A DNA stretch of 52,042 bases, filler included, from Bipalium vagum (lineage: Eukaryota): NCBI GenBank assembly GCA_037834085.1. It is 3 parts of 3 records of this genome, joined end to end, with 100 filler letters (N's around TTAATTAATTAA, not from the genome) between each part and the next. Parts side by side here need not be neighbours in the genome. Positions count along the whole stretch, not along the records: positions 1 to 17,288 come from JBBMKC010072559.1; 2 more parts are not named here. The stretch is one strand, 5' to 3'. This document shows, piece by piece, positions 1,741 to 33,959 of this stretch. Under the pieces are notes generated by a model. It ran no database searches, was not told the origin of the DNA, and saw only the letters and a program-made list of their open reading frames with translations. Both the position numbers and the translations under genes were made by a program. Numbering within the stretch: the stretch's first letter is position 1; each line of letters starts with the position of its first letter.

Positions 1741-1904
1741 TTAAAATTAAAATCTTACTGGTAAAACACAAACTTTACAATTATATAATGTACCAAATAA
1801 ATCAAATTATATATTTATTGCTTTTAGAGAAATAGAATTTAATTTTAATAAAAAAATAGTCTGTTTATTGAAAATAAAAAAGTTTAAGAGTTTAAGTTAA
1901 TAGT

Positions 1905-2205
1905 TCATACTATCCTTTAAATTCTATATAATTTGAAAAGGTAAAAATATTAGAACTTATTCAAATTATGTAAAAGCATATAAATATTTTAATAATTATC
2001 CACAACTAAGTTTATTGGAATATCAAAATTTATATTCATTTTTTGTTTTCATCAACCTGAAGATTTATGTTTAAATGGTGTTATAGTAACTTTACATATT
2101 TCAAAAGATTCAGATTTTAAATGAATAATAATGTTGTTTTGTTACAAGAACAACTTTGAGAAATAAAATTAGAGGTTGGTAAAATGTTTAATATTGAAAT
2201 AGAGA
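1905..2205 (+). pseudogene. Probable Polinton-like major capsid protein C-terminal remnant
   Basis: Frameshifted translation YPLNS..NIRTYSNYVKAYKYFNNYPQLSFI/EYQNLYSFFVF..QPEDLCLNGVIVTLHI..VLLQEQL*EIKLEVGK resembles the C-terminus of Polinton double-jelly-roll capsids; adjacent to a viral-type HNH gene. Confidence 0.45.
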
Positions 2206-2289
2206 AAAAACAGTATAAGAAAAAAATGAAGGGAAAATAGTGATTAATTATTATATATGTATAGTGATAATTATTTTTAAAAAATTATT

Positions 2290-2640
2290 AAAGATTATCA
2301 TTTCTTACTCATATTTCTTGAAATATATATTACCAATAATCTACTTTATCACTTTTTGATAAATTATTTGGACCAGTTTAAGGTCTTAAATTGCTCCAAT
2401 TATAACAACATTTTAAAAGAATTTTACTATCTAAATTAAATTTTGAAATTATTAAAACATGATCCATATGCCAGTATTTTCTTTGATTTTTCCAAGTTAT
2501 TTCATCATAAAATTGAAATTGAAAACAATTAATTAGAAAATCAAAACTATATCCAAATAATTCTTAAATTTTTATCTTCTCTTTGTTCCCTTATAGCTCC
2601 ATTTAAGGTATTATATAAATGTTGCTTACATTTTAACATT
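2290..2640 (-). pseudogene. HNH endonuclease of giant-virus/prasinovirus type, pseudogenised
   Basis: Minus strand: LFGYSFDFLINCFQFQFYDEITWKNQRKYWHMDHVLIISKFNLDSKILLKCCYNWSNLRP*TGPNNLSKSDK, matching the family pattern LGC..QF...MTWDNYG.WHIDH..P...F.L....CF.WTNLQPL...N.SK. Confidence 0.8.
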
Positions 2641-2669
2641 AGATTTTCTTGTTTTCTATTTCTATGAAA

Positions 2670-3460
2670 ATCATTTTATTTTATTTTCTGGAATATTTCT
2701 ATGATTTTTAATATGGATTAAATGATAACTTTTATAATTATTCATTTTAGAATAAAAATCTGTTATTTGTTTTATTTGAAAACATTTATGACATTCTTTT
2801 GTTTATATTTAAAAAATAGATTTATTATTTAAAGCTTTCTCTTCATAAATATCAAAGTTTTCATTCTCTATTTTTTAAATTAAAAAAAATAATTTGTCTT
2901 TTTGTAATTCACTCCGTTCAATTATATTCAATGTATGATTAACAAAGATGACTTTGATTAATTTTATTTAATTTTTAAATATAATACTGGTGTAAGACTG
3001 TTATAAGATAAAAATAAAAAAAATTAAATTTCTAATCTTTCCAGGGGAGAAAATTTTCAGTTTCTATATAATCATAAATATCTTGTAAGGGATTTATTGT
3101 TATATTTTCTAATTCAAGATATAAATTTTTAAAATACAAGATTTTGCTTAACTCAAAATATTTTTTTTATTTATTCCAATGATTTTTATAAATTATATTT
3201 ATTTTATATAAATTTATTTTCAGGAATATTTCTATGATTTTTAAAATGGGTTAGGTGATAAGATTTACAATTATTTATTTCTTCAATAAAAATCTGTAAT
3301 TAGTTTTAGTTCTTTAGTTTTGCCTAATATCGATATTGTATAGTTATTATATTTTCATTTTATAAATATTTAATTTATCTTTATACTTAACGTATGTTTA
3401 ACAAAGTATATTTTTATTAATTTCATCTAATTTATAAATATAATAATTGCGTGTTATGTA
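2670..3460 (-). repeat. Diverged tandem duplication (about 0.5 kb period) upstream of the HNH gene
   Basis: ggaatatttctatgattttta...aataaaaatctgt near 2690-2763 and again near 3223-3297; gtatg.ttaacaaag...aaatataata near 2933-2986 and 3392-3445. Confidence 0.75.
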
Positions 3461-3571
3461 ATTATGTTTTGTTTGAATAGATACTTTTTATAATTCTGCG
3501 TCTTTTCAATTTGAAGTAAAGAAGACCTTACTGGCGACCACACCGAAAATGTACATGTTATAACCAGAAGC

Positions 3572-3900
3572 ATGAGAAAAATTAGTCATGGACGCGTTAC
3601 CAAAAAAACACACAGGAAATTTTGGAATTTCAAATCAAACGATATAATGGCCGAAAGATGGTTGAAAGATATTGAGGAATGGCTCAGTATAAATGGTTTA
3701 TGCCTGGTCAACGTATTTAATTTGCTATTATTTAACGAAGCTTCAACCTTATGGAAGAGTTTCAAGACAGAAGCAACAACAAAAGAAGAAACAAAGTAGT
3801 GGTTTGCTGACACATTTATGGAGAAGAATCCAATAACCGATTTAATTTGCAAATTGACAGAATTCACACAAAACCTCACAGAACTGTCAAAGTCAGCTTC
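3572..3900 (+). mobile_element. LTR retrotransposon gag fragment
   Basis: ORF 3572-3799 contains AERWLKDIEEWLSING...LLFNEASTLWKSF, the W.....E / L...A..W pattern of Ty3/Gypsy-type gag. Confidence 0.5.
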
Positions 3901-4244: not shown

Positions 4245-6182
4245 TTTTTTTATACACCTTAGCCAGTTTACACGCCGGTGGTGGCCTAGACCCCACATAC
4301 CCCGTATGAGCAGAACATACAACAAATAGTACACCAACACAACCCCACCCATCACCAAACATCAAACAATCAATCATACAATCAATAAATCCAACAGACA
4401 TTCCTAACAGAACAGGAAACGGAAGAAATAAAAGAAAATAACATAAAACTTACCTAACTTACCTGCCTCAGGGGTATACATTTTGACCAGGTCCCCTTTC
4501 CCTGGTCTTAAATGACCTCAGGTTCCTCCCTAGCCCAATCGCCGGACACCCGTACACTTTTCCCTCCCTGCTCGACAGAGATCCAACACCACTCGCCGAA
4601 CAGAGAATCGAGCCCTAAGGATGGCTGTTTCTTAGGGCGTCCGTACGGCCACACATTCAGTTCAATGTACGTCGACCAGATCCAGATACGGCATGCCTGA
4701 ATCGAATCATCGCAGCAGAGCCCTCCAAAGACCTCACAGTCATTACCTTCAGGTCCCCGAGCGTGAACCCGAGTTCCTTGAGTAATAACCATGTGCTATA
4801 ACACCAAGCTCCTCTCCAATTGAGTTTTATACCTGCTAAAAAGGGTACACTCGTCCCGCTGGGGTCTACATACCGATGTACCGCGCTTATATCATATTTA
4901 CGGACCTTGATCTTATTATCTTCCTCCAAGTTTACCAAACTTGAGTCGCTGACAATCTGGGCATCTAAAACGAGAGGAGGAACACCGTCCTTAAAGGCTA
5001 CGATATCAGGCTTTAGAAAACTGCTGTTATAGGGGATTTTCGGTTCGACCTCGACCCGATAGCCTAAGGCTTTAAGCTGAGCCACCACATAATCGACTAC
5101 ACGATTGCGCTTCCAGAGACGCAGGCCTTTTGCAGCACCACATTCCTGGAGTATATGGTTGAGGCTCTCGAGCTTGTCACCACAGCCTTTATCACAGAAT
5201 GGGCTCCCAGAGCCAGCTCTACCACTTAATGCTCTTGTCGCAGTATGAATCAGGTTACTCCGAATCCTGATCACGTAAATATAATCTTTCCCGCTCATAA
5301 GTTTGGTACCATTGCTGACCCTCGAATGCACCCCTGGGACTCGATCCATCTCCGCCAATCCTTTTCCGTCCAACAACATACACGCAGAAACGCGACAGTA
5401 GTCGTTCATCGATCCCGCTTCGTCAGAGCCCACCACCAACGGTTCGTTCCACAATGCGACCTCCTTACCAAACTTCAGACACTCACCTGCCGCACACACA
5501 GCCGGGTCAGTGCTCTCAGCCAACTTCGCCAGTCGCCGTGCCTTTCCGAAGTATACTGTAACCAAGAGTGACGGCAACCCAATACCACCATCCGACACTC
5601 TAGCATGGATATACGCTGATGTCGTATCACTTGGTAATTTCAGCCATTCACGAACTTTCTGCCGCATATACTTATCGAGCGTTCTCAACTCGGTTGAGGT
5701 TACCGATCCCAACACCCGAACATGTTGGACCTTAGGGATCAGGTAGTCGCGGAGGAGCCTTTGAAAGCCCACCTAAACCCCTCAAGATCAATCGACTAAA
5801 ATCCTCTTTGACTGAACCCTTCGCCGAGAATCGAATACCCAAATACTTATATTCATTGCCGGCTGAGTGACACGACCACGGGTAAGGTGGCCGCCTCACC
5901 AACAACCGGCTCGGAGTTCGGAGGATCCTAAATTCAACGGTAATTCTGAAGTTGTCTTAATCTGAATTTCTCCTCACTTTCTGTGCCATGCCATATGGAT
6001 AGCCAGACCCCCTCGGGCCTTTGCAGACATTCGGGTAGATCGTACACCGAACCTCAACTCCGTGGGACGCCTCAGACTCGTCTTCGTCTTGAACGCCCAT
6101 GAATGCAAGTGTGGAGACTACGACCAAAGCCACCAAAGCCATCTGTTACAATTCAAACAAACTCAATCCTTCCAATCAACCC
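4245..6182 (-). mobile_element. R2-clade non-LTR retrotransposon, internally deleted
   Basis: GC-rich island. N-terminal C2H2 finger (CTIYPNVCKGPRG/LAIHMAWH across a frameshift, about 5980-6050), RT motif 7 YKYLGIRF (about 5830-5855), thumb LRDYLIPK, CCHC knuckle CDKGC..ESLNHILQEC, REL nuclease EPKI..KPDIV..LDAQIV..KVRKY and LNWRGAW; 3' UTR ends in a short A run near 4245-4251. Confidence 0.9.
4657..5772 (-). CDS. C-terminal part of R2-like ORF (thumb, zinc knuckle, restriction-like endonuclease)
   Basis: 371-aa ORF in the track with CCHC and PD..D..K motifs; RT core absent, so probably non-functional. Confidence 0.85.
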   Translation of the reverse strand: MGFQRLLRDYLIPKVQHVRVLGSVTSTELRTLDKYMRQKVREWLKLPSDTTSAYIHARVSDGGIGLPSLLVTVYFGKARRLAKLAESTDPAVCAAGECLKFGKEVALWNEPLVVGSDEAGSMNDYCRVSACMLLDGKGLAEMDRVPGVHSRVSNGTKLMSGKDYIYVIRIRSNLIHTATRALSGRAGSGSPFCDKGCGDKLESLNHILQECGAAKGLRLWKRNRVVDYVVAQLKALGYRVEVEPKIPYNSSFLKPDIVAFKDGVPPLVLDAQIVSDSSLVNLEEDNKIKVRKYDISAVHRYVDPSGTSVPFLAGIKLNWRGAWCYSTWLLLKELGFTLGDLKVMTVRSLEGSAAMIRFRHAVSGSGRRTLN

Positions 6183-8613: not shown

Positions 8614-11600
8614 ATGACTAATACGACTAACCTTTCTCGAGTTCCTTCTCGTAGATTGTCGTAATAAATGATTGTTCTATATTCGCATAAATTAGTTTTT
8701 TTTAATTTTCAGAACTAGTGGTATTAGTCTGTATGAAATTTTAGAAATAAACAAAACTGCAACAGAATCAGATATTAAAAAATCATACAGAAAAGTGATT
8801 GATAAATATTTATCTATCTTGAACCATAATATTTTCCAAAATTCTAGCTTGCTTTAAAATATCATCCTGATAAAAATGCCAATGAACCTGCGGCTACTGA
8901 AATGGTATTGTTTAATGTTTATATTACAACCACTTATTTTAGTGTTTAGTTCAGAAATATTAACAGAGCTTACTCAGTTTTGATCGATTCAAGAAAAAGA
9001 AATTTTTATGATAAATATGGATCACTGGGATTACAGTTTTTAAATCAAATGGGCGAAGATAATGCACAGTTCGTATTAAAATCCGCACATCCTTGTTTTA
9101 AGGTATTTATTGATTTTTTTATTGAAATACATCTGAAATCTTAAATTAGTAAAGGTATTTAACCGTCAGAAATAAAATTTTAATTTATTTTTAAGATTAT
9201 TATTCATTTATGTTTTGCTTATTCGTAAAAGTATATATCAGTCGTGTCCAGTTTACATTTATTGGTCGAATGTGGATAAATATCATTTATTTAAGAACAA
9301 TCAGATTCACATAAATTTAAATTATATGTAAGACTAATAAAATACACTTGACAAATAGAGCAATATCAGTATAGAATCAAACCTCACAGAAAACCGAAAA
9401 AACAAATAGATGTTAGCTAAAGCGTAAATATGACATGTGACACTGATTAATGTTAAAATTAATGGTATAATTCGGTCTGGGTTACTAAGTAGACATCGAA
9501 TTATGGATTGCAGTTGCTCGTTTGTCAACATCAAGAAAAAGCTCTTTGGTAGGAGAGCTCAGAAGTTTTTAAAATATTTCTGGAAAGTGAAATCTTCCTG
9601 CAGATCCATTAGGTCAAGCTGCACATCTTATTGGTACATCTTTATGTGAACTACAAAAGGATAAGTAAACCAATTAAGCTTTCTTTAGAAAACTCTGAAA
9701 ATTTTGTTTTTTTTTGAAATTTTTTTTTGAAAAAACGTATCTTTTTGGTGCCTGTTATGAAAGTCTATCAAATAGTTCTTGAGATACAAAAAACCAGGTT
9801 GTGTGAATATTTCTTTTTTAGGCCCAGTGAGCACCTAAAAATTAGTACTATATATTTTTGCCCGTTTACCGTACACTCTGGACATTTATAATTAGTCAAA
9901 ATTCAACACCTTTTTTCGGCTTTTCAAATTTGGTTTATGTTAAAAATAAAGTCTGAAATTCCATAAAAATTGATTTTCAGTTACTGAAATAATTTTTCAA
10001 GCAGGATTGTTCTTAATCAATTAATATCATAAATACATCCGTTGTCAATTTCTTTTTCTCAAATATTTTATTTTTCAATGACAACTGTTTAGTTTGTTTT
10101 GATAACAATTTTAATTTTCTCTATTTCGAATGAAATTTATTGTCTTTTTCAAATTTAAAGTTTTCTGTTATAAAGATAAAACTTTTGATAAACAGTCAGA
10201 AATATTCATAAAATAATTTATTTTGTTCTCTGCTTTATTTAATACGAATATCAGACATTTGAATATTATATTTTACCGATAATGTTGCGAAATAATAACT
10301 GGATCTTTTGTTTGAACACTTAAACCTATTCCACAACACGGTCATCACATTCGATTTTATTTAGAAAAATAATAATTATTGTTAGTATTTCGACTTTAAT
10401 TATTAAAATCATATGAAAGAATGACATGATAATTATTTCATGTGAACAGTGTTGAATTTCAGAATAATTATTATTAATTCTCTCAAAGTCTGATATTTGA
10501 AATTCTGGGTGTATTTCAAATAAAGAGAGAAGGTTCTAATTGAAATTTCCAAAAATACGAAGTTGAGAGTTTGTGAAATATTTAACTTTTTGTGAGATCA
10601 AAATAAAAATTCATTAAATTTCTTAACGCTGCGCAGTCTGGCATATTTAGATTTAATGAAATTTTGGTTTTTGAATTACCCAAAAATTATGTATAGAATA
10701 TTTCTCTTAGAAAATGAAAACCCATATTTTGAAGTCATAATTCAGTTCTAATACCATTGACTGAAATGATGTTATTTTGCATCAGTGCTATAAATTTCAT
10801 TGCTAAATTCGAAGTTTCACACGCTAAAACAATATTTTCATTTCATTTAGACAAGACAATTATTAATCTTGTTTAACAAGATTTATATTTATTATATTTT
10901 TAAATAAAAAAAACAGTTAAAAATTATCTAAGTATATATGTAATGCAATTTCCTAATACAAATTTAGCGTAAAAAGGCTAAAAGAATTAATGCAAAAAGT
11001 TTTGAAGATTTACGATCCAGAATTATTATGAATTCTACTAAAAATTCCGCGAATATTGCAAAGATTTTAGGTTTGAAATGAACAACGGTGTATTCAATTA
11101 TTAAGAAAAATCAGATCACTGATAGTAGTAAGTTAGAAACAAAAGGTTCTCATCGTCCAAAAGTTACAAGTGTGGAAGGGGAGGGGAGGTACAAATTCGA
11201 GAATAGGTTGTTGTCAATTGTGCTTTAACATTGGCAAAAATATCCAGAATGTATGAAAAAAAGGAGTTAAAATATCACCAACAACTGTGTATAGAAGATT
11301 AAAATGGTTTCATTATACCCTTAAAAGAATACACAGCATGCCTGAACTCCGAAATTTCCTCGTCACCATTGAAAAAAGAGTATTTTATTCAGCCTCATTT
11401 TTGGATGACTGTTTTTGCAAAGGATAAGATAATAGATGTTTCGATATGCTCAAGAGAGAGATGATCTTTGAAGGGTTCTCCGGCAGCATTAAATGTCCCA
11501 GGATTAAGATCAAGAAACATCTCTTGCGGAGCTATGAATGTGATGGACTATTATACTTTGGAAATAGAATCAAAGCCTATAATACAGAAAGTTATATTTC

Positions 11601-14754: not shown

Positions 14755-16095
14755 ATTCTACCGATGCATTACCGAATTTTTTGTGATATTGATTTATTGA
14801 TTAAAAATTCTGCCTTACAGAAGAAGCGATCGACTTTAAATTATTTCAAACTTTATGCATAATGGATTTTTGACTTGTCTTCCTTTATATTTTTTTATTC
14901 AAAATTAATTGAAGTGTTTTATTGTTTCTGTCTTGTGAAATTTTTATTTAGGTTTATTTTATGATGTGCAAGGTATTAATTTATTTTATATTGTGATGGA
15001 CAACATTTTCATGCACTTTAATTGTGATAAATTTATTAAATTATAAATGGTTTAAAAAATATATATATATTGATTATTATTGAATTAACTCTATTAATAA
15101 AAATTAAAGATCTCGTCAATTTAATTCATTTATGTTGTGGAGCTTCAATTTTAATGTCATAATTTTACAGAGAATTATAATTTAAAAATTAATTATTTGT
15201 AAAATTAATTTATGAATGCTTTAAATGTGAAATTTTATTTAAAATACATAAATCTTTAAATTAGTATGACCGAAAATGTATATAATCTTCGAATAATTAA
15301 TACTTTTCATTCTATTTCTGTTTTTTCAAGCTGGATTAGATAAAAAATTTGGTTAATAGTTCTAAATATTAAGTTTTTATCAGGTCTTAGGTTTCATATT
15401 CAGTTTATTAATGATTCAAAATCTTTTTCCACAAAATTATGTGAGTTATATTAATATATAAATATTAATCCTTTCTTAAGTTAAAAATAAATTTAAGATT
15501 ACACAATTAAAACAATTAAGTAGTTCATAAAAAGACATTACTTACTGTTCTTTATTTATTCAGGTATACATTTTTAAATTTCTAAAAATAGGTGGTTGAT
15601 AATAGAATATTTCTATCCACCCTGCGTTTATGTATTCGACTGAATTAATTAGAATTTCTCATTGGATTTTATATCGGAAATTAATGTGTTTATTCCCAAA
15701 TTTCATTACAAATGATCTTAGATTATCATGGTTCTTGAATTTGCCTTACATTATCGTTTTTAAAATATTTTCTTAAGCTTTAACACAGATTTCAAATTTA
15801 TTTTTCTTTATCTGACTCTATTGTATATAACTCATAAATATGGAAACTTGACAAATAGTTTAATTTCAATTTAGTTGGATTAAATAGATTGCTTATTTCT
15901 TTAAAAATAAAACTTTAATATTTTTGAAATGAAATAATCATTATAGATATATTTTGTAAAATTCGTTTAAAATTGTAATTGTTATAATACAATAATTTAA
16001 CATAACTTTTAAATTGAATTTCTTTCTTTGAAATTTATAAAATATCTTTGAATGTTAGTTTATTTTATTTTTTTGTCAAATTGACACCTTTCAAG

Positions 16096-17288
16096 GCCAA
16101 TAGAAGAAAATATTAAAGTCTTAATACGAATAAGACCTAATAACAATATTGCTGGAAAAGATTACTTGTCAAGATATAAAGACTCGAATTCAATAATAAT
16201 TCCATCAGAGTTTGAGCCTAAAAGATTTACATTTGACAAAGTGGCAAATGAAAATACAAGCCAAGTTGAATACTTAATTATTTATGAATTCTTAATATAA
16301 TCTAGGAAGAAATATTTCAAAATTTTAGATCTCTTTTTGAATCGTTTTTTTCTGGATATAATTGTACTATATTTGCCTAGTAATTTTTAATATTTTGTTA
16401 AACTTTTATTTCTTGTTTATAGTGGTCAAACAGGTAGTGGGAAAACTTACACCATGACTGGTGATTCATGCTATAACTGTCTTGGTCAAAATCCGGGGTT
16501 GGTTCCTCAAGGGCTTGAATATATTTTTGATAAAATAAATGACCATTCAATTACGGTAATAATTTGAGTATATTAAAAGTATACTATTATTTATTATTTA
16601 ATTGAGTATGTAAGCCCAAAGCTTACCAAGTGAATTTAATAATTTACTCGTTAGTAAAGATTTATCAGTATTTTTACTAAATTTAATATTAAAAATATTT
16701 TAAAAATTAAATATATTTAATTTTTATTTGCAGGATCAAGTGGAATATTTAGTAAAATGTTCATTTGTAGAAATATATAACGAGCAGTTGTTCGATCTGC
16801 TTGATCCAAAGGGTCAAAAAGTGCAGCTAAAAGATAACTTTTTGCAGGGAGTTTATGTTGACAATTTAACGGAAAAGATTCTGAACAATACGAGTGAGGC
16901 TCTTGAGGTATATTTCTTTGTAAAGTTCTGAGTTTATATTTTTGATTAAATTTTTAGATTTTACAGAAAGGCCTAGAGAGTCGGCATGTTGGAAGTACTG
17001 CGATGAACCGTGAGAGTTCCCGAAGTCACGCAGTATTTTCCATTATTCTTGAATCCAGCGTAAAAGAAGATGGCTTAGAAAACATTCGAAAAAGTGTTCT
17101 CCATTTGGTAGATTTAGCTGGCAGCGAGAGACAGAAAGACACCAAATCGGACGGAGTTAGGCTGAAGGTCATTAAGGATAAAATCTGAAATCGTAATTAA
17201 CTTTTGCAATATTGATTATAGGAAGCCGGTTCCATTAATAAATCTCTTCACGTTCTTGGTCAAGTGATAAGTGCTCATGTGGACATTG
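16096..17288 (+). CDS. KIF15: Kinesin-12/KIF15-like motor domain, partial
   Basis: Exons 16096-16264, 16306-16379, 16423-16555, 16734-16907, 16958-17167, 17222-17288. Motifs [71 protein letters not shown]. First exon not located; truncated by the gap. Confidence 0.88.
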
Positions 17289-17388
17289 NNNNNNNNNNNN
17301 NNNNNNNNNNNNNNNNNNNNNNNNNNNNNNNNTTAATTAATTAANNNNNNNNNNNNNNNNNNNNNNNNNNNNNNNNNNNNNNNNNNNN
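17289..17388. other. Assembly spacer N44-TTAATTAATTAA-N44
   Basis: 100-bp gap containing a six-frame-stop linker. Confidence 0.95.
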
Positions 17389-17750: not shown

Positions 17751-20700
17751 GTGCACTGCATGAGAAATATGGATAGTTTCTGTCACATCTCTCAACATCT
17801 TTGTCAATTCTGTGCATGTTATCTGCCATGCTCAATAACTGATCATCCTGAAAAAAAATCCCAAAATAAATAATTTTATTTGGTTAAGTTTGGTATCCAA
17901 ACCTGGAATATCATATCTTGATTGGTCGATGATCCTGCATCTATACTATTATCAGAGGAGTAAAACCCTTTTGAAGGCCTGAGATCTGAAAGATTTGATT
18001 TATATATTTCAAAAACACAAAAATTCAGACCACAGTTTGAAACATTGATAATTTTATCTTTTTGGGGACTAGAGTTTTTGGATTTTTCATTTGATATATT
18101 ATTGAAATTGATTTCACTCTGACAATTAAACAAAGAATTTGGTTTCGCTTGTGAATTTGAAACCAGTTGTGGCTGGCATTCACTTTCTCGTTGACTAATG
18201 ATAACTTCTATTGCTTTCCACTGACTGAGGGTTTTTTCGTAATTCAATTCCGTAACCAGGTTTATCTCGGAATTATCAGTTGAACACCATTCGTAATGAC
18301 CCAGCATTCGAGGCCAAACCTAGCATTGCAACTTATACATTCATCGACGAAGACAGGTAATCAATATAAAAACCTCGTTTCTCAAAGATTCCGCACATCC
18401 TCCAAAATATATATACCTGTATAATTCAGTTTCTGATAAATCCTGATAAGAATTAAAAAATAATCAATATTTCTCAACAAAAAGAAAATTATTTCATTTG
18501 GAAAACTGAGCTATCCAGAAAAGCTTATATATTTAAGTTAAGTTATAGAACAGCTTCCGTCATTAGCTTAGGTGAAATCACATTTTTCAACGAAAATGGA
18601 GTCAAGTTCTTATGAACGATTAACATATAATGTTATATATCAATTATCATTTAACGGGAGATATATAGGAGCAGCCCATTACATTTGTAATATCAATGAT
18701 AAAAGTATTAAAAACTATCGTTACATTTTATTTTCATAATGGAAATTAATATGCTTTCCACTTATTCTTTAAAGATATTACAAAGAAATTTCCAAATGGA
18801 ATAAAAAATGTAATTACAAATATTGATGAAATATATCAGTTTTAGCTTTAAAAATATTAGAATTTTAGATTCATTAACAATGGTGGATTCTTCAATATCA
18901 ATAACTGAAACAATAAGAAAAATATTGACAGATACATCTAAACATGAAACATTTAATGAATATAATCTCATACCAAGAAAGTAGATATATTCAATGAAAA
19001 AACGTAAATGAATGAATTATTATTTTAAAAAAGATATTCCTCTGAAAATAATTTTTTATTCCGTTTTGAAAAAACCACAATTTCAGATGAAGACTAAAAA
19101 TATTTTTTAAAGATTATAAGAACTTTAAGAATCTAAAAGAATATATTACTTTACAATATACTTTACTAATACTTTACACTATTGGAATTAGATATTTTAA
19201 TTTTAGCTGATTTTATGGAAAATATAAGAAAAAAATGTTTAGAGTATGATTATGATATAGATTTGTTATCGTGCTCCAGGAATAAGTTTGAATTGTTAGT
19301 AAAGGAAAATTAAAATATTATAAAGAAAAAACATGATTATTTATTATTAATATAAACAGGAATAAGAGTAAGAATATCTAGTATTCAGAGATATAGAAAA
19401 GTAAAATTAAAACTATTATAAATAATAATAATAATTATTATTAACCCGAGAAAATGAGATCATGTTATAAATGATTTTAACAGATATCTTTAATATTATG
19501 ATGCAAATTATATTCAAGTTGCATAACAATGCATTACCAACAGGAGAAATGAAAAAAATTTAATTTATGAAAGAACATCGATATCATCATCTAATAAAGA
19601 AGGATTTATATATGTACTTGATTTAGAATATACTTTTGAATTACATGATAAAACTAAATATTTTTCATTCTATTCAGTAAAAGAGAGTATAATATTAAAT
19701 TATCAAATTATAAATAATACTTTATACATCTCAGAAAAATTAATATTAACAAGATTTGAAAAATATAATTATATAATATAAGGTTCAATGTTAGGTTGGT
19801 ATTTAGATCGGGGAATGGTAATAAAGAAGATTCACAAAAAATAGTTTTTAAAAAAAACAACTTTGGAAAAATCAAACATAGAATTTAATATAAAAAAAGA
19901 AGCTAAAAGAAATAAAGATGGATTTGGTGATTTCTTTTTACAAATTAAAAAATAATTCAATTTATGAAAAACTTTTAGAAAAAGACAAATTATAGAAATA
20001 GTTAAATTGAATATTTATAAAAAGAAAATATAATAACTATCATATAGATATTAATTTTTTAATTTAAAACTGGTGAATGAAATCTTCAATATTTATAAAC
20101 CGGAAGCCATAAATAATAAGTTTACTTTTCAAATAAGAACATAAGATAGTCATAAATGTTTTCAAATAAAATCAATTTCAGATTTTTATTCAAAAATAAA
20201 TAATGGTGAATCTTATCACTTAACCTGTATTAAAAATCATAGAAATATTTTTGAAAATAACTTTATAAATAATCATGATAATTGTTAAAAATGAGTGAAA
20301 TAGGTAAAAAAATATGTTGAGTAAAACAAAATTTTTTTAAAAAAATATTTATATCCGGAATCAGAAATGTAAATTTTTAATTCGCATTAATTAACATATA
20401 TGATTGAAATTAAAAAACTTCCATATAAAAATAAAAATTATTATCACTCTCATATTACGACAAAAAAATAAGTAGCTAACCTTGTTATTTTTATATCTAT
20501 TCCAAATTTCGACAGTCAATCCTTCGCTGGCATCACAAGGAACATCACATTGTACTGATCCAGGGAGAACAAGGGAGATACATTTCGTTCTGACAGTTTT
20601 TAAATTTCGATAATAATGATACCCTATTAGAAACAAGTGATTTCATTAAAAAAATTGATTTTAAGTCACTTACATCCATAAAAGGCCCTTGACAAAATCT

Positions 20701-23700
20701 GACGTCTCATTACTGTACAAAGACTGGTGAGGGAATCGTTTAACTGGTCAAGCTTAGAATGGTCAACAAATTCATTATCCAAAGTAAAAACAGAACTGCT
20801 TTTATCGTCTTTACAAGAATCTGTACTTGGACTGTTGAAGTAGTCTGACGTCGTCTCGGTTCCTGGATCCTGGTTCAAAATTAAGGAGAAAAGAAATTTT
20901 AAAAAATTACTGTCGATACTGATGTGCTTTCGTACACAATCCGAAAAACAAAGTCAGACAGACATGAATTGCATTCATCGTCATCTAAAACGGTACTTTC
21001 AACCAATTTATCCACAGATGAATTCGAACGCATTTTCAAAGTCCTGAAACTATCGAATAAACTAAACCCTTTCGACCGAATGCTTTTATAAATATTTCTG
21101 TCGTCATCCGATGTCAAGCTGCAATTACTACGTCTTCTGACCATCTTAGGAAAAGCCTTTTCTCCTAAAATGAAAATTATTTTTACATAAATGTTATTAA
21201 GTTTATTAAAGTTCGTCCACTACTAGTGAAATGTTTACCAGATAAATGACAATAAAACCTTAACGAGGAAAACGATTATGACCGAATAATATTCAAGCTA
21301 TATGTATTAGGTTGTCGAAAAAGTTCTGCAACAACTAAATAAAACTGTTTTCTTTGTGAAATTAGATTATAACAAATCTTAAGATTAATTCTCCAATTGA
21401 TTATCAATAAATCGATAAAAATTTATATTTTTGTTATACATTATACCTCAAACGGCTCTCATTAAATTTGAACTTCGGGTTTTAATCGGTCATTGTTGAA
21501 ATCAAGAACAATCCATAAGAGATGCGCTGCAAAGGAAATGTGTGTTGAAGAAAGAGAAGAAATTGTAAGTTACAGTACCGTTTCAAGGTGATGCAATCAA
21601 TTTGATTTCGGTGACTTGAGTCTTTAAGATCAGCCTCGCTCTGGTAAACTTTCAGATTTAGGCGGCAAAGGCTCTCCAAGCTTTATTGGAATTTGAATCA
21701 TTAACAAGCACTTGTGATTTGGAACTTGAAATTGGAATAAACAAATCAACGATTCATCGTCATCTGCAATAACTTGATTTTATCCACAAGAAACTGCTTT
21801 AAGATCAACATGGTCTCACCGAAGTACAAAGTGGTAGATAATGATGGATTGTATTTTAAATTTAAACAATGTTGTCTGTTTTAAAAACTTTAAATAAAGT
21901 TGTATATCTTTCGTCGTAAAATGACAAACTATTCTTAGCATTAGTGACTTCTAAAACCAAATATAACATGCCAATCATCAAACGATTCATTGATTAACAA
22001 TCCTGTTACCCATATTGATTTTCTCTATAAATATAATTTAAAAAACAACAGTTTAAGATAATCAAAATAATATAAATATATAAAAGTATAATACAACCTA
22101 TGTCCCAAAAAATGATTTGTTGATTTTAATATTAATTTTGTTTTACTGAGCTACTTTGTATATTTTTAGGATACATTTTCAATTTTTAATAAATATTCTT
22201 TTAGAAGAACAGGAAATATTATTTTTATTATATTACGAGAGAGTACTACTCAAAATGGGAAAATTCGAACTAAATTAAGAGTCAATACTTAATTATGGAA
22301 TGGCATATCGATCACTGTGTATAATAAAAGAACGTTGAATTATGATAAAATAGTTCTGTTCACTTTGTATAAGTCTATACTAATCCAAATCCGTAATTTA
22401 TAACAGTCCGCTTCATTTATCGGTACGAAAAAGATTTAAAATCCGTAAATTATCTAGAATGATTACCGTCATTGACTTGAAGTAGGGGCGGCTCCAGCCT
22501 GCCAGTTGGCATTAAACCGTTTTCCAGACACGTTAAAAATTGCAATAAATGACAGCCCGAAGGAAAATATAACGGCGGGTGTTGAACACCATCTTGACAA
22601 ACAAGAGTCACCTTTCCACTTTTGTCGTCTGGAAAATATCAAAAAGCGATCAGATATCAGATAGTCTTGATCAAAAAGTACCGTTTTGATGAACATGGAG
22701 GTACACAATATTTTCTAACTTAATCAACAGAGCACTGTCCCATTGAAGCCTGGACATAAAAATGGCCATTAAATCAAACAAAATATATTCAATTTTAATA
22801 AAGACCAAGTTTAACAAACTTTGGACGGTTAAAATATTGATTTAATTAAATTAAAACTAAGGTCTCTTTCCAAAAGAAAAGCGGTATCAATTTTTTACTG
22901 AATAATGACAATAAATGATTTTTTTCGATTTATTTTTAAAATAATAATAATAATATTAATATTAATATTAATATTAAAAATAATAACAATGATTAATAAG
23001 TAGTCTATCAAAATCATCATTTCCGAAAAGGTTGATTCTTAAATTGATTAGTGATTTATTTTACGAAATCTTGTAAAGATAGAGAAATAAAGACATGAAA
23101 ATCAATAGAATAATCGTTGAGAACAGCAGATTAAATGGAAGGTTAATGAATAACGTACGCTTTTGAAGATCCTGGAGAGATACAATTATAGGAATCTTTA
23201 TCACTAGGCATAAACAAATCAGCTTCATTCATGGTTTCCATATCATGATGGGTTTGACAGTTCATCAATTGATTGGGCGTCCATTTGAGTCTTAGTTTAT
23301 CTCCAAAGGTTTGGTGCAACGATAGATACCCTTGCATTTCATTCAGATCGTCTTTCTGTAACAAAAAGGCAGAGGAAAGAGGTAATTAAATTAAAAAAAT
23401 ATTAATGACTGATACATATTCCATTTTTATCAAAAATTTTTCTAACTAACTGAAAAATGCTCTTGTTTCATTGGATTCACAGGTGCAAATTAAGAAGGTC
23501 TTGTAAGCAGAGAATCGATTGAATATTTTGAAGATAAAAGAAAATGTTGAGGCATTTCAATTCAAAATAGCTTGAAATCATTAAGACACGATTGCAAACA
23601 CGAGTGGTCATTCATGTTTGGTCTCCATGTGAACATCTTCTCAGCCAAAATTTTATAATTAAAATAACACAGGTAAGCTTCTATTATATTAGAACTTTAT

Positions 23701-26700
23701 GTTATTATTTTAGGTTTGTTTTAATAACATAAAACGTTTTTTAACAGACAATGACAACGGCGCAAATTAGAACTTGCTTACTTTATGAATATATGTTAAA
23801 GAAAAATGCACCACATGCTGTGCGAAATATTTGCCAAGCGTGTGGTAAGGATTCAGTTACTAAACGAGATGCTCATCGTTGTTTCAAACGATTCCGTTCT
23901 GGGGACACATCGATTAAAGCTCAGGTCGACCATCAGCGATTTATAATAGCTCTTTAAAACCCAAGATCGAGCCCAACCCTCAACAATAAACTCCTGCACT
24001 TGTAGATATATTTAAAGTAGGCAACCAAACAGTTGGCGATCATCTTAAACCAATTGGAAAAGTAAAAAAACTACAAAAATAGATCCCACATCAATTAAGA
24101 GAAAATTGCAAAAATCAGCGATTATCCATTGGCTCTTCTTTGTTGATAAAAAACAAAAATGAAGCTATCCTTAAAAGAATTATTACCTGTGACGAGAAAT
24201 GGATATTCTTTGACAGGACATGACGTTCCGGTTGCAAACACGGTTGCAAAACAAGGAAATAATCCAAAGAAAAGAAGAATAACCGTTTGGTGGTCTATGA
24301 TCGGTATTATTCATTATGATTTCTTGAATTTTAGGGAAACTGTCACAGCATAATCATATTATCGTGAACTCGATGATTGTTATGAAAAACTGAAATAAAA
24401 CCACCCTGTCTTGGATAATCAAAAATCCATTACTTTTGCACGATAATGCTCTACAAAAATTGCAGGAACTGAATTACGAAACTTTACCTCACCAACCTCA
24501 TTCCCCAGATATATCTCCCACGGATTATCATCTATTCCAATCACTTGACAATTTCCTATCAAAATAAGCAGTTCAAAAATCAGGATGATGTTCAAAATAC
24601 CTTCGCTTCTTTCATTGAATCCCGTGACCTGGACTTTTTCAGAAACTGTAAAAAGAAACTCGTACAACATTGGCGACGTATCGTAGATGTCAATGATGCA
24701 CATTGTGATTAATAAAAATTTTTATAGTGACTTATCGACTTTTGATTTGTGAGATGAAAAAGCGACAATACTTTTCCTTCAATCTAATATTAAAATTTCC
24801 AAATTTAATTTTCATTTGTTTAAATGCATTAATTTAATAAAATGTTCACCTCAACCAGATAACACTTTAAACTGTTCAGTGCAGAAATCATAACATATTT
24901 CCGCCAGATTCAATTTTATGAATTGAGATTTGACTAAATCGGTGTGCAGCAGGATGAGATAATAATTTTGTATGGGACGCATAAAGCCTAAACAAACAAA
25001 GTTCTAACATTCATTTATGTAAGAAGAACGACCCCTTTCTCTATCAGAAAATGATTAGACAAATATAAAAACTTTGGGAAAAACATGTAACCCTTCACTC
25101 TATGACTAGACCACAGTTAACTGAAATCATGAAAAGTTTTCTGTGAGGAGTATATGATCTAATTCATCAAGGATTTTGAAAGCTGATGAGACAACAACTC
25201 CAACTTCGTTCACTGAATGATAAAATGACCAGAGATGTCAAAATAAAAGTACTGGCTTAGTACACTCAAAAGTACTAATTACTCTCGACGACAATGTTTA
25301 TTTGGAGACCACAAATTTAACACTACATGAGTTGAACGACCTAGACTAGAAAACCCATAATTTAGCCTTTTCCCTGGTACCTTAAACAGCAGAATTTAAT
25401 CTTTTCAGGTATTTGAAAAACTTCTGTTCAGAAAGAAGGCGATGACAATCTTCAAATCTACATGAATTCCTAAGCTGTGAAAAACCAAAGTTCCTTTGCA
25501 GTGGAATCAAATGAATAACTTTGATTAGTAAAAGTTTTTGCTTAAAAGCGTGCTCAAATGTGCTAAAGTTCACCGTGAAATGTTCCATGAATGTTGAATT
25601 AACTTAATAACATGGGGTTCAGAAATGAAGAATAGAAACCAGAGATAGATTTGAAAGAATCGTTTGAAATTTCAAAAGGTTAATGTAGTGAATGGTTTCT
25701 TTCGATTTGGAGACCTTTAAGAATTAATTTGTCTTATTTTTACTTGAAAAATAACGAGGAAATTAAAAATGCCTCATTTAGGCTGAGGAAGAGAGCATCA
25801 AGAAAATATGCCTTCCTGCCAGATTAAAAAAGAACACAAAAGTCAAAATATTACCCCTCGAGAACGATAACTTAGGACCATCAAGTCCGACAATGACATA
25901 CCAGACATAAAATTCAGCTTAAAAAGAATAATAATAATAATAAAATGAAACATTTTTTTTCTCTAAAGTTTCATTGGTGGATTTGTATAAATAAACAAAT
26001 CTCGATTCCAAAAAGAACTTTAAAATATTTAATGTTGGTGGTCACAGTCTTGAATAAGTAATGGATCTTGAAATAAGACAACAAAAACACAAGAGTGTAA
26101 ATACAATTTAATCTCTTTAGAGATCCCTAGACGAGAAAAGTACGGGTGACGAATGTAAATAATGAAACAGTCCTCTTTTTGTTTCAGTCCAATGTCTGCA
26201 GAGAAACAGAAAACCAGCTGATCATTTTCTTCGAGACAGTTTTCAATAAAGAAAAACCTGTGCTCGTCAACTATGACAGCACAACCTTTACTTGAAATCA
26301 GTTCCGAACTCAAGTCCCGCATTTATTAAGGAATTATAATATTTCTACGTGATATTTTTACGGTGCTCAGTGTGCGAGGTCAAGAAGAATAATAATGAAC
26401 ACAATTTGCACTTTATAAAACGAAAATTTGAAATATATTTTCTTATTTAATATTTCAAGCACGACTTTAACGCTATCAATGCCGAGAACAAACGCTAGCT
26501 TAATAGAAAATCAATTGATTGTTCTCTAATATGAGCACTAAATATTATTATAATAATAGATCAGCATTAAATCAAGCTACAGACAAAAAGGACGATGTTT
26601 TGTCATTTTTAAACGGCCTAAATCAGCACAAGTCATTTATTACAGTTCAAAACGACATGCCAACCATTTGAACCAAGAAGAGTGCACTGGAGTGCAGTAA

Positions 26701-29700
26701 TGACCATATTTGGCTGAACAAAAAGTTCGTTACTTATTATTTTGAACTGATTATTAAAAAATTGTTCTAAAAACATTTTGTTATATTAAGTGTATCGCAT
26801 GAGATTTATTGGCTTGTAAAGTTCAAAAGGCAATTAATACAATTTATTGAAAATAATCGATTTTGGTCAAATGAAAAGTAACAACATTAATCACAGTAAT
26901 TTCTATTATTATACATTGTATATGACCTATTTCCATCTTAAATGTTTAAGTATCATCTCATCTTTATAAAAAGTGAAGGACTTTGATGTAAAGAAAGTGT
27001 CCAGGGTAGTTTTGATATTTTCTTCTGTTGAAAATTACCTAACACTTAGGTCATTTTGTACAGACATGAACAAGTGATAATCTAAAGGAGCGATGTCATG
27101 TGAGTATGCAAAGATGCAGAAGAAGTCCTCATTCTAAATTTTTGATTTTTTGTAATGTCAATTTTGAAGAATTGGAAAGGACACTGTTATTTTAATGAAT
27201 TTCATTCTATTGATTTCAATTCAGCTTCGAGCTTCCCTAATTGATCACATTAGACGTTTGCTGTTTTTGACATAAATTTTGGCAATACTCAAAAAAGATT
27301 AGACATCATTAGCGGGCGGGCATGAAGCCAACTTGGTATTAGCTTATGACAGGTTTTAAACACTGCTGCTTTAATATAGACGTGATACAATCACTTTTCA
27401 TCACATGTCACAGTTCTTTTCAAAAAGTTTTCTTTCTTAATTTTGAAGAGAAGAATAAATTTGTAACTTCTTCCATTTGCTGTTATCACTCAAGCAATAA
27501 AGAATGTGTGGCCCTTCTTAACTTATTTTCCTTAATTGATGAAGAGTGGAAATTGTGGTGTGATAGACTTGTAAGCGACGTCCTTACTCTCATGGTACAT
27601 TAAGTCTTGGTTCTTCCAATAGTCAAAAGAGCATGGGCATCAAAATTTGAAAAAACTTTCTCCTCTACTTTCCGATAGATCACAATCCCCAATCTATTAA
27701 ACTTTCAGAACCATTTTTAGCATTCTTGATAAACAGATAATATACAAAATTTCCAAATGAATTTGACGTAGTTGATCATTTTCCATACGCATATAATAGA
27801 CAATGACGAATATAAATTTCTTCAGCTTTCATTTAAAAATATTTATATTTTATGATTTGATTTCTAAATAAAGATCGAAAATTTAATTAAATTAATACAG
27901 TAAAACAAATTTCAAAACAATATTTGAAGTTATTATTCGAATATTTTAATAAGTGTCAAATAGATTTTTAAATGAATTATTTTGTTAGATTAGTTACAGA
28001 TACGGAGGAGATAATAGTCATTAGTAACAGTGATGTTTTAAAATGATAATATCGGTGAAAATAATATGGTTTCTAAAAAATGGTTTCATTGAGATTATAA
28101 AGTCTTACCGGCTGAACTACAACATTATTTTTGCCGTACAGTATAATATTCTTCATATTTTGATGTAGAGATTCCACGTAATCTTTAGCCAGGGATTTAT
28201 TTTCTGTATTACCTCCGTTCGATAATTGCTGAGGTGACATAGTAAAAATGTTCCCAAAAGCATTATTTGTAGCTGGATCTTGAAATTTTAGCGATGGACA
28301 AGTGTGGTGCTGAATTTTGAGATTAGGTCGGTTTTTATTAGAGCAAGTTATCTTCAACCCGGACCGATAAATATTTCGATCAAGATTCATTGCCCAAGAA
28401 CCTTTACTGTGAATATTATGACGATCAAGCAGTTCAGATGCGTCAGGATCAGCCCACAAATGGTCACTTGGTTTCACAAGACTGAAATCAAGTGAACATG
28501 GTCCCGCTGAAAGACATCATTTTTTATACATGTTATGAAAATACAAATTCTAGTGTGGCATTTTCTCCAGCAAAATATTAAAAGAATTACAAATTAATAA
28601 GCGCTTTTCTTTTTCATTTTATGGTTTACTTTTAAATCATTTAAATCATAGGTAACCAATGATTTCTTTGACGATATAAGTTGTTTTAGAAATAACCCTT
28701 TTTCTCTTGACATCGAATTTCGGGGACTTAATACGATTAGACAAATATACGACTCCTCTCTCCAATATTGAATTACTCCCATTACTGTGATAATCGACTC
28801 CGTTGTAACCAGAGTAGTCTGTATTCATCCTTTTTGAATTTATAAAACCCGAAAAAAATTTACTTCACCCAAATATAACAAAAAATCTCAGAACTTTATT
28901 ATCGACTTTCCTGAAAAAGAAATTTAAATAAATTTAAGTTAATTTTGTCTTTCTTAATCTTTGTTTAAATAGATTCAAATAGAAATCACCAAGACTACGG
29001 TTCGTCTTTCCAATTTTGTGAGTTTTTCAGTGAAATTAAAAACGGATTAAAATAAAATGAGATGGTTACGCATTGATAACATTCCCTAAATAAGATACAA
29101 ATCAAGACAAAATATTAAGTGACAAGCAAAATAAATGAGTAGTAGAATTAATGCGTCACAGAATACACCAAAATCCGATAACACCACCAACACGGTCTAC
29201 TCAATAAGTTTTCAGCTTACTGATCAGGTCTTTAAGATAAGATCAAAATAAGATTACAGTTGAAATGTTCTCTTATTTCTAAAAAGTTGGAAACTTTGTC
29301 ACTGCTTGGAGTCACTCCTCTTTGAACTTTGATAAGACCATTAGCATATCATTTGATATTTCTAGTGGTTCTATGGACTTTGGTAATTTAAGCAGTCGAA
29401 TCGAATAATTGAGGTTGACTTTCCCTGTATGGGATATAAATAATCCCGTTGGTATTGGAACCAAACTTAGTGCTCCCATGTCGTCGTTACTAGTTATGAT
29501 AGATCTCGACTCCCTAGGTCTATTAATGTGATGTATTTGGTAATTTTTGCAGCGAGTAACACCTCCTGGTCGTCAGATGATCATAAAAAAATGTGGCTTT
29601 TAAATGAAAAATAGACCAAACTATATTCAGGATAGTTTAAGGAACGATAACAATCATTAATGGCAATAAGGACCACTATTCTCGGCAATCATCAGTTATA

Positions 29701-32700
29701 AATCTGTGAACTTTTTTGATTTATTCGAATTCAGATTTTATTAAATTATTGGATGATCATTAAACGACCTCAGGTTTCGATTGAGATTCAATTGAAATGG
29801 GATGAAGATTTTAAGATGGCGGAAAAAATTGGAAATATTCGGTTTATTCAAAAGATTTATGTGAACAATAATCCACGTAATGTAAAACAATCAAAATTGT
29901 CTAAATCCTAATGGATCGTATGGTTTCAGATCTAGGGCGAAGCTTGTTTCTCATAGATTGCTTCTCTGAGATTGACGTTTTGCAAACCAGTAATAAATTA
30001 TCCGTTCGTTACCTTGGATGGTCCCAGTTGCATTTGATCCCAGTTATGATAATCTCTTCAATATTCATATTGACTAAATTTTTCAACAAGAAAGGCGAAT
30101 TTAAAAATTGATATTTTCACATCACGGATAAAAACTGCAGAATGATTGGATCAATATTTTGATAAGAAGTCCCTTTTTTGTTTTAATCATAAAACTCATT
30201 TATAAACCAGAATTTTTTTTATTTTAAAACGGCAAAAAATAGTGGGTTCGGCAATCAATAAAGATATATAAATAATTTGTTTAACTCGAAGAAATGATTT
30301 ATTTCATTGAAGAACAGTCCAACAACACTTCATTTAGTGACATGGAATTAAAATTGTTCGAAAAAAAACAAAAATTACCTAGAAGATCAATAAACAATGT
30401 CCCACTGAGAGATCCGGACATTATGGACGTTTCATTATAAAATGATCTGAGGGTTACATATAAAAATTCAATATGTTAAATTTTTACAGAAAAATTACAT
30501 ACGAATGATGTTTCATAAGATGATCGATAATAAGCACCAGTTTCTTTTCCACGAGAGATAATTTGATCCACAAATATTTCATCAGAAAAGGTTTGGGCCT
30601 GATAAAATTGAAAATTTTACAGATTTCTTCTTTATCAATAATTATTAGAACCAGACAAAGGAAAATGCATGTCATATTTCATAATAAACCAAAACAAATT
30701 TCGGAGATTTTATAAATAAATGAACAGGGTGTCCCAAGATTCACGCAAGAATAATTCTGGCACAAAGCACGTGTAATTTATCAAGAATAGTACATTTTAT
30801 TGATTATTAATACAGTATAGGGTTGGTTATGAAATAACATATTGGATATATGACTTCCACAACTATATCCACTTTTTGTCGAATTTCTCAGAGATTAAGA
30901 AAATATAAAGTAAGACGAATTGCTTTTCCTTGGCATAAAAAGGAACCATTTCTTGAAACTGGAAATTAAAAAGAGTAATGGATTCGTAGATGATTTTAAT
31001 CATTCAGCAAAACCGATTGAGGATCACATTTTTTTCTAAAAGAACCCAGTCCGACGTTGGTATTAGTTTGTTCAAGTAGTAATGTTACTTTTAAATTGAA
31101 AAGTTAAATCTACACAAATGTCGATTGAAATGTGCACGCATTCCAGCTGCTCATAAAAAAATCGGAATTGATAGCCCAGCAGTCCTTAACCAATTCAAAG
31201 TGTAGAATCCTCTCAAAGTTCCACCAAACACAAAGCATGAATTTTCTGCCTAACCGATTTTTCTTTGGAATTGAAGGCGTTACTTGTCTCTTCTCCACAC
31301 ATCACTTGTCTCGATTATGTTTGAATAAATACACCCATTTCTCGTTTGACGTCAAACTTCATTCCAGAATCGATCATCCAATGGAAAGTTGAGTAATTTA
31401 GAGAAAAACTCGACCTGCCTGCTGGCTTGTGCTTCGGTGAGTTCGTTCGGATCTTGATGCGCATTCTCGTGAACAGAATCAAGTTTTTGCAATTTATTCC
31501 ATACTGTCAAGTGAGAAACTCCAAGTACAGTCTCTAAATCTCGAGTGCTCACTGATGGTTCTATAACCAAAGCAGCTTGCAAGTCACTTTTGTCTAAAAC
31601 AGTAGGTCGTCCAGAACCACGACTGTCTTCCAAATCAAAGTTTCCTTCGTGGAAGCGATTAAAGCATTTGCCCACAGCAGTTATGCCAATTTTCTTTTCG
31701 CCTTCAATTTTATTGATTTTTACCGTAGAATCTTTTATTGTCAATCCTTTCTTCCAGTAGTGACGTAGCAACACCTGAATCTCGAACTTTGTAATCTCGT
31801 AACCAGCATAAGACATTTCCCAACAAAAATGAATTCCAAGATCGAAATAAATTTTAAAAAACAATTTTAAGTTTGTTCACGAACTTTATGTACAACCAAT
31901 AATGCTCATCTTCACGTCCCACAAACATCATCGTTAAAAACTAGAAAAGAAAAATCCATAGAACAGACTCATGATTACACGATTAATATCAGCAATAAAA
32001 CAGTAATTATGTCAGTTCGAGTACTAATAAATGATTTATGGTTCTCAAATCAATATAATTCAATAAAATCACTGAAGTGCTGGTTAATAAAACAACCATA
32101 AATCTTAGAGGCTGTCTTGAGAACGTAAGTCAACCTAAAACACATTTCTTTCATAAGTAAAATGAAAATTCATAATGATGATATAAGATCTCAGGTCCGT
32201 TCAAACGTTAATAACAACTTAAAATCGGTGGACTATGAACCTCGTCGACTATCTACCTTACTTTTCAGACATGTATAAGGGGAACCCAAAAATAGTGCTT
32301 TTAATAATTTATTTATATTTCGTGTAAAATATTCTTTATATTATAAAACCACATTTTCATGATATCTTGTTTGAATCAACCAATTTGAGGAGCAAACATC
32401 ACCATGGAAACCTCACCATAATGCAGGACCACTCCCGCTCTCACGCAGTCAAATTTTCTAATTCCTTCTTGATGCAGATGCAATCAAGCGTACTCCACAT
32501 CCACCATACTTTGCTGTCATGGACCAGATGGATTGCCTCATATTCCGTAGTTTAGAGTCAAAGAGAAGAATGAAATCATTCAAATCCGTGCATGAAATAA
32601 AAAATTTCGTAAATAGATGAGCTGACACGTGAGTTGAGCCACTTCAGAGACGACCTGGACAATATCACTTTATGTAATGGTGAATATTGATCATAAAATG

Positions 32701-33859: not shown

Positions 33860-33959
33860 NNNNNNNNNNNNNNNNNNNNNNNNNNNNNNNNNNNNNNNNN
33901 NNNTTAATTAATTAANNNNNNNNNNNNNNNNNNNNNNNNNNNNNNNNNNNNNNNNNNNN

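Follow-up and report, generated by a model that had tools for sequence, protein, structure and literature searches.

A module repeated three times in Bipalium vagum DNA, read as the knuckle of a dead HNH endonuclease gene that was probably carried by a Polinton-type element

The window analysed here, a stretch of 52,042 nucleotides from the genome of Bipalium vagum, holds the remains of an HNH endonuclease gene and of a Polinton-type protein-primed polymerase (pPolB), with copies of one module beside both. The question raised by this locus is what the module was while it was alive, and whether its presence beside two different genes tells us how the element that carried them was built. The features needed to follow the argument are listed below, with the evidence for each in brackets.

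1780..2310, plus strand: putative capsid-like stretch of the original prediction (two short collinear motif matches, negative bit scores)
2309..2602, minus strand: HNH / endonuclease VII-like catalytic core, a pseudogene (profile E = 6e-22; tblastn; phrog_1035)
2550..2690, minus strand: putative bridge from knuckle to core, the helix before the HNH, in another frame (giant-virus-type profile columns 96-142, E = 0.22, weak when taken alone)
2676..2909, minus strand: copy A, read as the HNH gene's zinc knuckle together with the extension N-terminal to it, interrupted by in-frame stops (alignments; knuckle profile)
2922..2993, minus strand: upstream block common to A and B and absent before C (57/72 identical to 3381-3452)
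3106..3402, minus strand: copy B, read as the same 5' part of the gene, with internal deletions, a frameshift and a Lys-rich spacer (self-BLAST; alignments)
3381..3452, minus strand: upstream block of copy B; element-like sequence stops shortly past it (alignments)
18653..20003, plus strand: relic of a Polinton-type protein-primed polymerase, from the endonuclease VII-like insert to motif B (tblastn to E = 3e-12; profile)
19999..20367, plus strand: copy C, read as knuckle and spacer preceded by the N-terminal extension, and truncated at either end (alignments; knuckle profile)

At 28% GC the window is AT-rich; its genes have short introns, and it contains many decayed transposons. Just past copy B, at 3530-3900 (plus), lies what we take by eye to be a Gag-like stretch, which marks the end of the left relic. 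A 371-codon open frame at 4657-5772 (minus) forms an island of 50% GC without a Pfam match, and by eye it is presumably the C-terminal end of an R2/NeSL-type non-LTR retrotransposon. Farther along are an intron-split DnaJ gene at 8700-9200 (plus), the first exon of which has DNAJC5 as its best PDB matches and so points to a probable animal host, and a kinesin gene with very short introns at 16000-17280 (plus), presumably KIF15-like by eye, which runs into an N gap. Decayed mariner-type transposases occupy 23400-24700, 26900-27200, 31350-31900 and 42600-42800, with matches at 24430, 27011 and 42651 and the others recognised by eye. The N gaps lie at 17289-17388, 33860-33959 and 37260-37387, and because the first two share one form (44 N, 12 bases, 44 N), the order across gaps is scaffolded rather than read. 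The stretch is present in one sequencing run, and no RNA dataset containing it is listed.

Three copies and their divergence

The module occurs three times in the window, as originally predicted, with copies A and B on the minus strand and copy C on the plus strand. The motif positions are 2760/2730/2709 in A, 3294/3263/3242 in B and 20181/20211/20232 in C. The expectation that every copy carries the motif holds for A and C and fails for B, where an internal frameshift keeps the full motif out of any single frame. Pairwise alignment gave 304/400 identical nucleotides for A-C, 316/402 for B-C and 268/341 for A-B, so that the copies are 76-79% identical over about 340-400 aligned nt. The corresponding local scores (276, 282.5 and 218.5) lie far above the maxima of 100 shuffles for each pair (115.5, 130 and 112.5), being at least 1.9 times the best shuffle. 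Self-BLAST over the whole window returned these pairs, one unrelated 51-nt pair and nothing else. When the core of copy A was compared with 300-nt tiles, the three copy tiles scored 116-200 and all others at most 56.5, and neither the tile scan nor the whole-window self-BLAST revealed a fourth copy in the window.

The common unit exceeds the motif that was first noticed. A and C align over 229 nt at 77% identity (2681-2909 with 20032-20260), whereas the similarity of B and C extends to 3106/20367, where both copies end in a Lys-rich tail. The unit thereby gains some 28 or more upstream codons and a Cys-containing stretch, the latter deleted in B. Upstream of both A and B stands a further block of 72 nt (57/72 identical), which is missing before C: compared with the sequence upstream of C, the two blocks score 33 and 26.5, against a shuffle mean of 31.

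Coding-type conservation among the copies, which the original prediction had named as its own test, is not what the differences display. Between A and C they fall on codon positions 1 to 3 in 17/64, 12/64 and 10/64 cases, without a third-position excess; a pattern with half of the changes at third positions is rejected (P = 0.0017), while the one-third expected by chance gives P = 0.20. The pN/pS ratio of this pair is 0.74, and the five other frames give 0.45-0.98. Third-position changes are even fewer between C and B, and a small codon-position sample (3/20, 5/21 and 4/21) is likewise without third-position excess. Over 83 common columns the differences are star-like, with 12 for A-B, 10 for C-B and 15 for C-A. 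The even distribution over codon positions means that the copies diverged as dead DNA and, together with the star-like pattern, that they parted as near-identical DNA and decayed afterward.

The HNH gene, its knuckle and its relatives

The best tblastn match of the catalytic core, to the nearest giant-virus-type relative in IMG/VR, is 46% over 72 aa (E = 2e-15), and the core also matches phrog_1035 (E = 2.4e-4). The piece at 2318-2551 resembles phage proteins annotated as 'endonuclease VII' or HNH (E = 2e-6), but the giant-virus-type proteins are closer. These relatives were obtained by a motif fetch from IMG/VR, which yielded 19 ORFs in 24 loci, 17 of them unique. The active site D-H, N, N is retained, and 13 of the 16 family columns that were checked are kept, including these four residues; the core pattern reads W-x-x-D-H followed by C-x-N-W-x-N-L-R-P...N-x-x-K. 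Neither Pfam nor NCBIfam recognises the module, the HNH piece or the intact relatives, no solved structure matches by sequence, and word-indexed protein searches with copy C and with the HNH piece gave no match.

An N-terminal CxxC...CxxC knuckle is found in 37 of 77 unique relatives (phage and IMG/VR, from 93 loci) and in 16 of the 17 giant-virus-type ones, followed by a charged spacer and then by the HNH core. In a six-frame scan of the window, a knuckle-only profile ranked copy A first (E = 4e-4) and copy C second (0.036), the next value being 2.6; these E-values are modest, and the profile used a pattern picked after the module had been seen. A full-length family profile built without a motif filter on the knuckle placed A third and C fourth after the HNH core, at N-terminal columns (11-64 for A, 17-86 for C). 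With the giant-virus-type profile, copy A matches columns 3-57 (E = 0.65) and the core columns 128-222 (E = 6e-22), so that A, bridge and core are collinear across three frames. Copy B was scored in part in these later profile scans, since a short internal stretch of it was omitted. A frameshift-aware scan was run in three exploratory settings, all of which are given here: A and C each stood above all decoy peaks in 3/3, and a mariner stretch slightly beat C in one. Furthermore, four of the six PHROG families that weakly match A (30859, 5558, 2340 and 12813) match the knuckles of an intact relative, L124, at the same profile positions, which provides support independent of the knuckle pattern. 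Two other candidates were rejected: P0007, a tandem-repeat ORF and the sole match to copy C in an exhaustive search, did not hold up when compared pairwise (E 0.09), and L001 matched an antisense frame of a phage gene.

The spacing of 22 between the second and third Cys is the mode among the relatives (51 of 78 knuckles). Two of the four knuckle Cys remain in A and two in C, whereas B has lost the first pair by deletion and has no HNH core behind it; the fourth is missing from all three copies, a state in which decay and a His-type variant look alike. The charged spacer, about 50-100 residues long in the family, follows both B and C, where the profile matches extend to columns 86-99. After A it is shortened, and A leads almost straight into the HNH core: the distance from the first Cys to the DH motif is 111 codons, compared with 125-182 in 16 relatives, which leaves A short of spacer by roughly 15-70 codons. 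The N-terminal extension of some 28 or more residues had no homologue in two large protein searches.

Read from its sequence, the module is thus the N-terminal zinc-knuckle region of the adjoining HNH gene and not a separate repeat protein. A coding origin is supported, and the uncharacterised repeat-domain protein of the original prediction gives way, on the evidence of profiles, PHROG families and relatives, to a knuckle of known type. The predicted sense of the module relative to the neighbouring genes was confirmed for both, the HNH gene being on the minus strand and the pPolB on the plus strand.

Some indication of how the intact nuclease would have worked comes from the structural model of one relative, L110 (pLDDT 86, from a 16-row alignment), in which a small knuckle, made of a hairpin and a helix, is followed by a long helical arm and the core. 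Residues 4-44 of the model overlay residues 55-106 of Hpy99I (Z 5.6, rmsd 2.6, 41 aligned), a Z value in the range that the tool calls common and close to that of an unrelated chain (Z 5.5). Foldseek gave this knuckle a probability of 0.93 and an E of 0.71 against Hpy99I, and no solved structure matched the model at E <= 0.001. The first beta4-alpha2 repeat of Hpy99I is described in PMC2699513 as binding zinc through two CxxC motifs and reading the major groove (PDB 3fc3). At the head of its viral matches stand mimivirus L246, with E = 1e-21, and an 'intron encoded endonuclease' of Bodo saltans virus, with E = 6e-14.

Flanks were scanned for 16 of the 17 giant-virus-type relatives, one being omitted: a capsid, RNA polymerase or Hsp70 gene is divided in two by 5 of them, 8 adjoin a piece of such a gene, and 3 do neither. 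Rfam group I cores occur in 7 of 10 relatives' loci, in 6 of them directly behind the HNH, and the description of homing endonucleases in Bodo saltans virus in PMC5871332 agrees with this setting. Because most of the relatives reside in group I introns interrupting essential genes of viruses, namely those for capsid, RNA polymerase and Hsp70, the knuckle-HNH family would work like homing endonucleases. Within this group, three giant-virus Hsp70 genes (L106, L124 and L127) are interrupted by knuckle-HNH ORFs with 2-3 tandem knuckles, and L127 has a group I core. Four other loci, in capsid or RNA polymerase regions (L110, L111, L112 and L115), have two group I intron cores each within 8 kb.

In living form, the gene would have encoded a giant-virus-type HNH (beta-beta-alpha-metal) endonuclease built of a zinc knuckle, a charged helical spacer and a catalytic core. 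To judge from its similarity in fold to the first repeat of Hpy99I, which is non-catalytic, the knuckle most likely bound zinc and read DNA bases, while the core most likely cut DNA in the manner of the homing endonucleases that the setting of the intact relatives suggests.

The polymerase relic and the search for Polinton genes

The pPolB relic covers columns 519-956 of a 1216-column profile (best E = 1.4e-10), and its frameshift-aware score of 434 compares with at most 67 for decoys. This alignment ends at 20003, around column 954 and just past motif B, so that about 260 last residues are missing (intact relatives run on for 250-280); a C-terminal profile found nothing of this part in the window (best E = 2.1). 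Since the pPolB coding sequence is interrupted there, the place where it meets the module is a point of breakage or insertion and not native gene spacing. The predicted native order of pPolB followed by the module is therefore not borne out. An in-frame pPolB-HNH fusion was likewise discarded as the native state, because A and B carry an upstream block that is not pPolB.

At copy C the distance from the end of the gene half to the first Cys column is about 142 nt, compared with 76-180 nt in 6 relatives. The 5' half of the pPolB lies before C, and no 3' half is found in the window. Rfam showed no group I ribozyme core in the window, nor did a profile made from the cores of 11 relatives, although this profile recovered 18/18 held-out cores at 12% simulated decay and 10/12 at 20%. 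The window copy is accordingly not placed in the intron-borne homing class.

A major capsid gene beside the HNH gene, another part of the original prediction, stayed below the level of decoys. For the double jelly-roll major capsid (PF21738), the stretch at 1780-2310 showed no significant match to a profile built from one Polinton capsid and 120 of its close homologues, a narrow profile set against a frameshifted target; in two of the three exploratory settings it gave the highest peak on the plus strand, which did not exceed the minus-strand or decoy peaks. Pfam gave no match there, nor did giant-virus capsids. Capsid locus searches returned the query's own contig alone, and a locus search with the pPolB piece returned nothing. 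A possible trace of a Polinton integrase at 48309-48530 (minus), within a very AT-rich region (48250-48600), depends on one tblastn match (E = 0.003) without profile support. No integrase, ATPase, capsid or terminal repeat was confirmed in the window, and neither terminal inverted repeats nor target-site duplications were seen around either relic, a loss that is expected in fragments.

At least 132 loci with this pPolB type were listed (11 viral, 121 metagenomic; median 2.7 kb), 24 of them informative in having the whole pPolB end and 1 kb downstream, and this HNH core was absent among the matches listed; conversely, no Polinton genes occurred in 104 HNH loci. It is consequently copy C that carries the placement of the HNH gene in a Polinton. 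No intact element with the order pPolB, module/HNH, capsid was found. Two Polinton-like loci, L095 (4236-4580) and L182 (1-255, running off the contig), contain a knuckle-plus-spacer ORF near integrase and pPolB, with no HNH core seen.

One insertion or two, and known systems

The reading that we prefer, with a probability of about 0.8, is that a giant-virus-type knuckle-HNH gene carried by a Polinton lies dead in an animal-like genome, its copies having been near-identical when decay began. In outline, the gene would have ridden a Polinton-type element that integrated into the animal-like genome and died there; A and B would have arisen by a tandem DNA duplication of about 460-530 nt, and C either from another insertion of this family or from local rearrangement of the one already there.

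Several alternatives concern the nature of the module. If it were a non-coding repeat, dispersed independently and standing beside these genes by chance, this would explain why there is no codon bias among the copies and no significant sequence match in two large protein searches. However, the collinear profile match to the N-terminus of the HNH family, right beside the core of that family, and the lack of terminal repeats or a tandem array around the module in the window make this view highly improbable. A and B might also be true intragenic repeats of a living virus, or an ORF with the knuckle alone and, behind it, a paralogous HNH gene, given that 3 of the 17 giant-virus-type relatives have 2-3 tandem knuckles, that knuckle-only ORFs exist in the two Polinton-like loci, and that B closes with a short unique tail and a stop. 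Natural tandem knuckles, however, are 50-53 residues apart and about one-third identical, whereas A and B lie about 530 nt apart, include their common upstream block, differ from each other no more (12/83) than either does from C (10 and 15), and show no third-position excess in the small sample mentioned above. This explanation thus appears improbable; since A and B are unlike natural tandem knuckles, a tandem duplication at the DNA level explains them better than a repeat protein, and a duplication is what they look like.

Other alternatives concern the way in which the two relics, which are probably of one Polinton-type family, are related. They face opposite ways, 17 kb apart, share the module alone, and each ends at its module copy. 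The original prediction saw independent fragments of one element family; one family remains likely, but independence does not follow, as a single inverted insertion gives the same geometry. In such a case, an inversion spanning about 3.5-20.4 kb would have divided one insertion, with the 5' part of the gene duplicated at the break points and a deletion in the pPolB. Flipping the middle segment puts both relics in one line, and their orientation, their single common part, their ends and their neutral, equal divergence despite the distance are all accommodated. However, there is no duplicated host sequence at the two ends, the tails of B and C do not align above shuffles (161/500 reach the score), two N gaps lie inside the segment, and overlapping ends would be expected for any two partly overlapping fragments. 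The split insertion is a tentative explanation, and so, to about the same degree, are the two independent insertions originally proposed, in which the HNH gene lies downstream of pPolB and the capsid gene is convergent. The latter draw on the linkage of pPolB and module on one strand at C, on the equal neutral divergence, which suits near-identical elements inserted in one burst, and on the weak collinear capsid-like motifs. They have to contend with the cut inside the pPolB, which implies at least about 780 nt missing at the junction, with the different block upstream of A and B, with a capsid signal not above decoys, and with the absence of this order among the matches listed (at least 132 loci, 24 informative downstream). 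The two models are about equally probable and cannot be separated. Compatible with either, the junction at C might be a homing site: a homing endonuclease of the giant-virus intron family would have entered an animal Polinton and inserted into the polymerase gene just behind motif B, C being that site and A/B a second one. The relatives are found within essential viral genes, on the strand of those genes and inside group I introns, the distance of about 142 nt is within their range, the cut falls in the most conserved stretch of the pPolB, and Polinton pPolBs with inserted HNH or VSR domains are described (PMC10748475; PMC11071308). Nevertheless, this event seems unlikely, as no 3' part of the pPolB exists anywhere in the window, neither Rfam nor the 11-core profile finds a ribozyme core, A and B follow a block that is not pPolB, and a plain deletion yields the same picture.

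Under the preferred reading, the locus is a small fossil: a Polinton-type element in an animal-like host probably carried a giant-virus-type gene of the knuckle-HNH family, now dead. This reading takes the place of the supposed new repeat protein and serves as a reminder that adjacency in decayed relics need not equal gene order. As a by-product, a family without a Pfam entry can be described compactly as intron-borne homing endonucleases with a putative Hpy99I-like reading knuckle. If the junction at the pPolB were a true homing site, a selfish nuclease would link Polintons and giant viruses, with a testable target sequence, and the locus would preserve a fossil trace of genes moving, and of nucleases in conflict, between giant viruses and animal Polintons.

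Regarding known systems, the window shares with Polintons/Mavericks a pPolB relic that carries the endonuclease VII-like insert and whose matches are Polinton-like pPolBs of IMG/VR and metagenomic origin, although this HNH family is absent among the matches listed for at least 132 pPolB loci. Nuclease domains inside Polinton pPolBs are reported in PMC11071308, HNH and VSR domains in the pPolB2 of nematode, oomycete and mollusc Polintons in PMC10748475, and HNH and GIY-YIG homing genes in PLVs in PMC12220804 and PMC11296320; further context is given by PMC11131425, PMC5714182 and a 2026 bioRxiv PLV framework. In the literature searched, no description of the knuckle-HNH family in animal Polintons turned up, and supplements may list such genes. 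As in the window, these cases tie a homing-type nuclease to a Polinton replication gene. However, those in pPolB2 are in-frame domains (PacI-like HNH, VSR) and those in PLVs are GIY-YIG or HNH_3 genes, whereas here a knuckle-bearing gene of giant-virus type is joined to the pPolB at a break point. The first beta4-alpha2 repeat of Hpy99I, with two CxxC on a hairpin and a helix, is like the knuckle in the model of the relative; this likeness concerns that model alone, at a middling Z of 5.6, and the window copies are without the full Cys set. The closest parallel is the family of mimivirus L246, the Bodo saltans virus intron-encoded endonuclease and phrog_1035 (Rhizobium phage 16-3 p100), with which the window gene shares the layout of knuckle, helical spacer and HNH as well as the active site D-H/N/N, its core being 46% identical to the nearest IMG/VR relative. 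Unlike the members of this family, the window gene is dead and in pieces, has a longer N-terminal extension, lacks the fourth Cys and an intron core behind it, and lies beside a Polinton pPolB in a cellular genome. It is best regarded as a dead member of a known viral nuclease family that was probably carried by a Polinton-type element.
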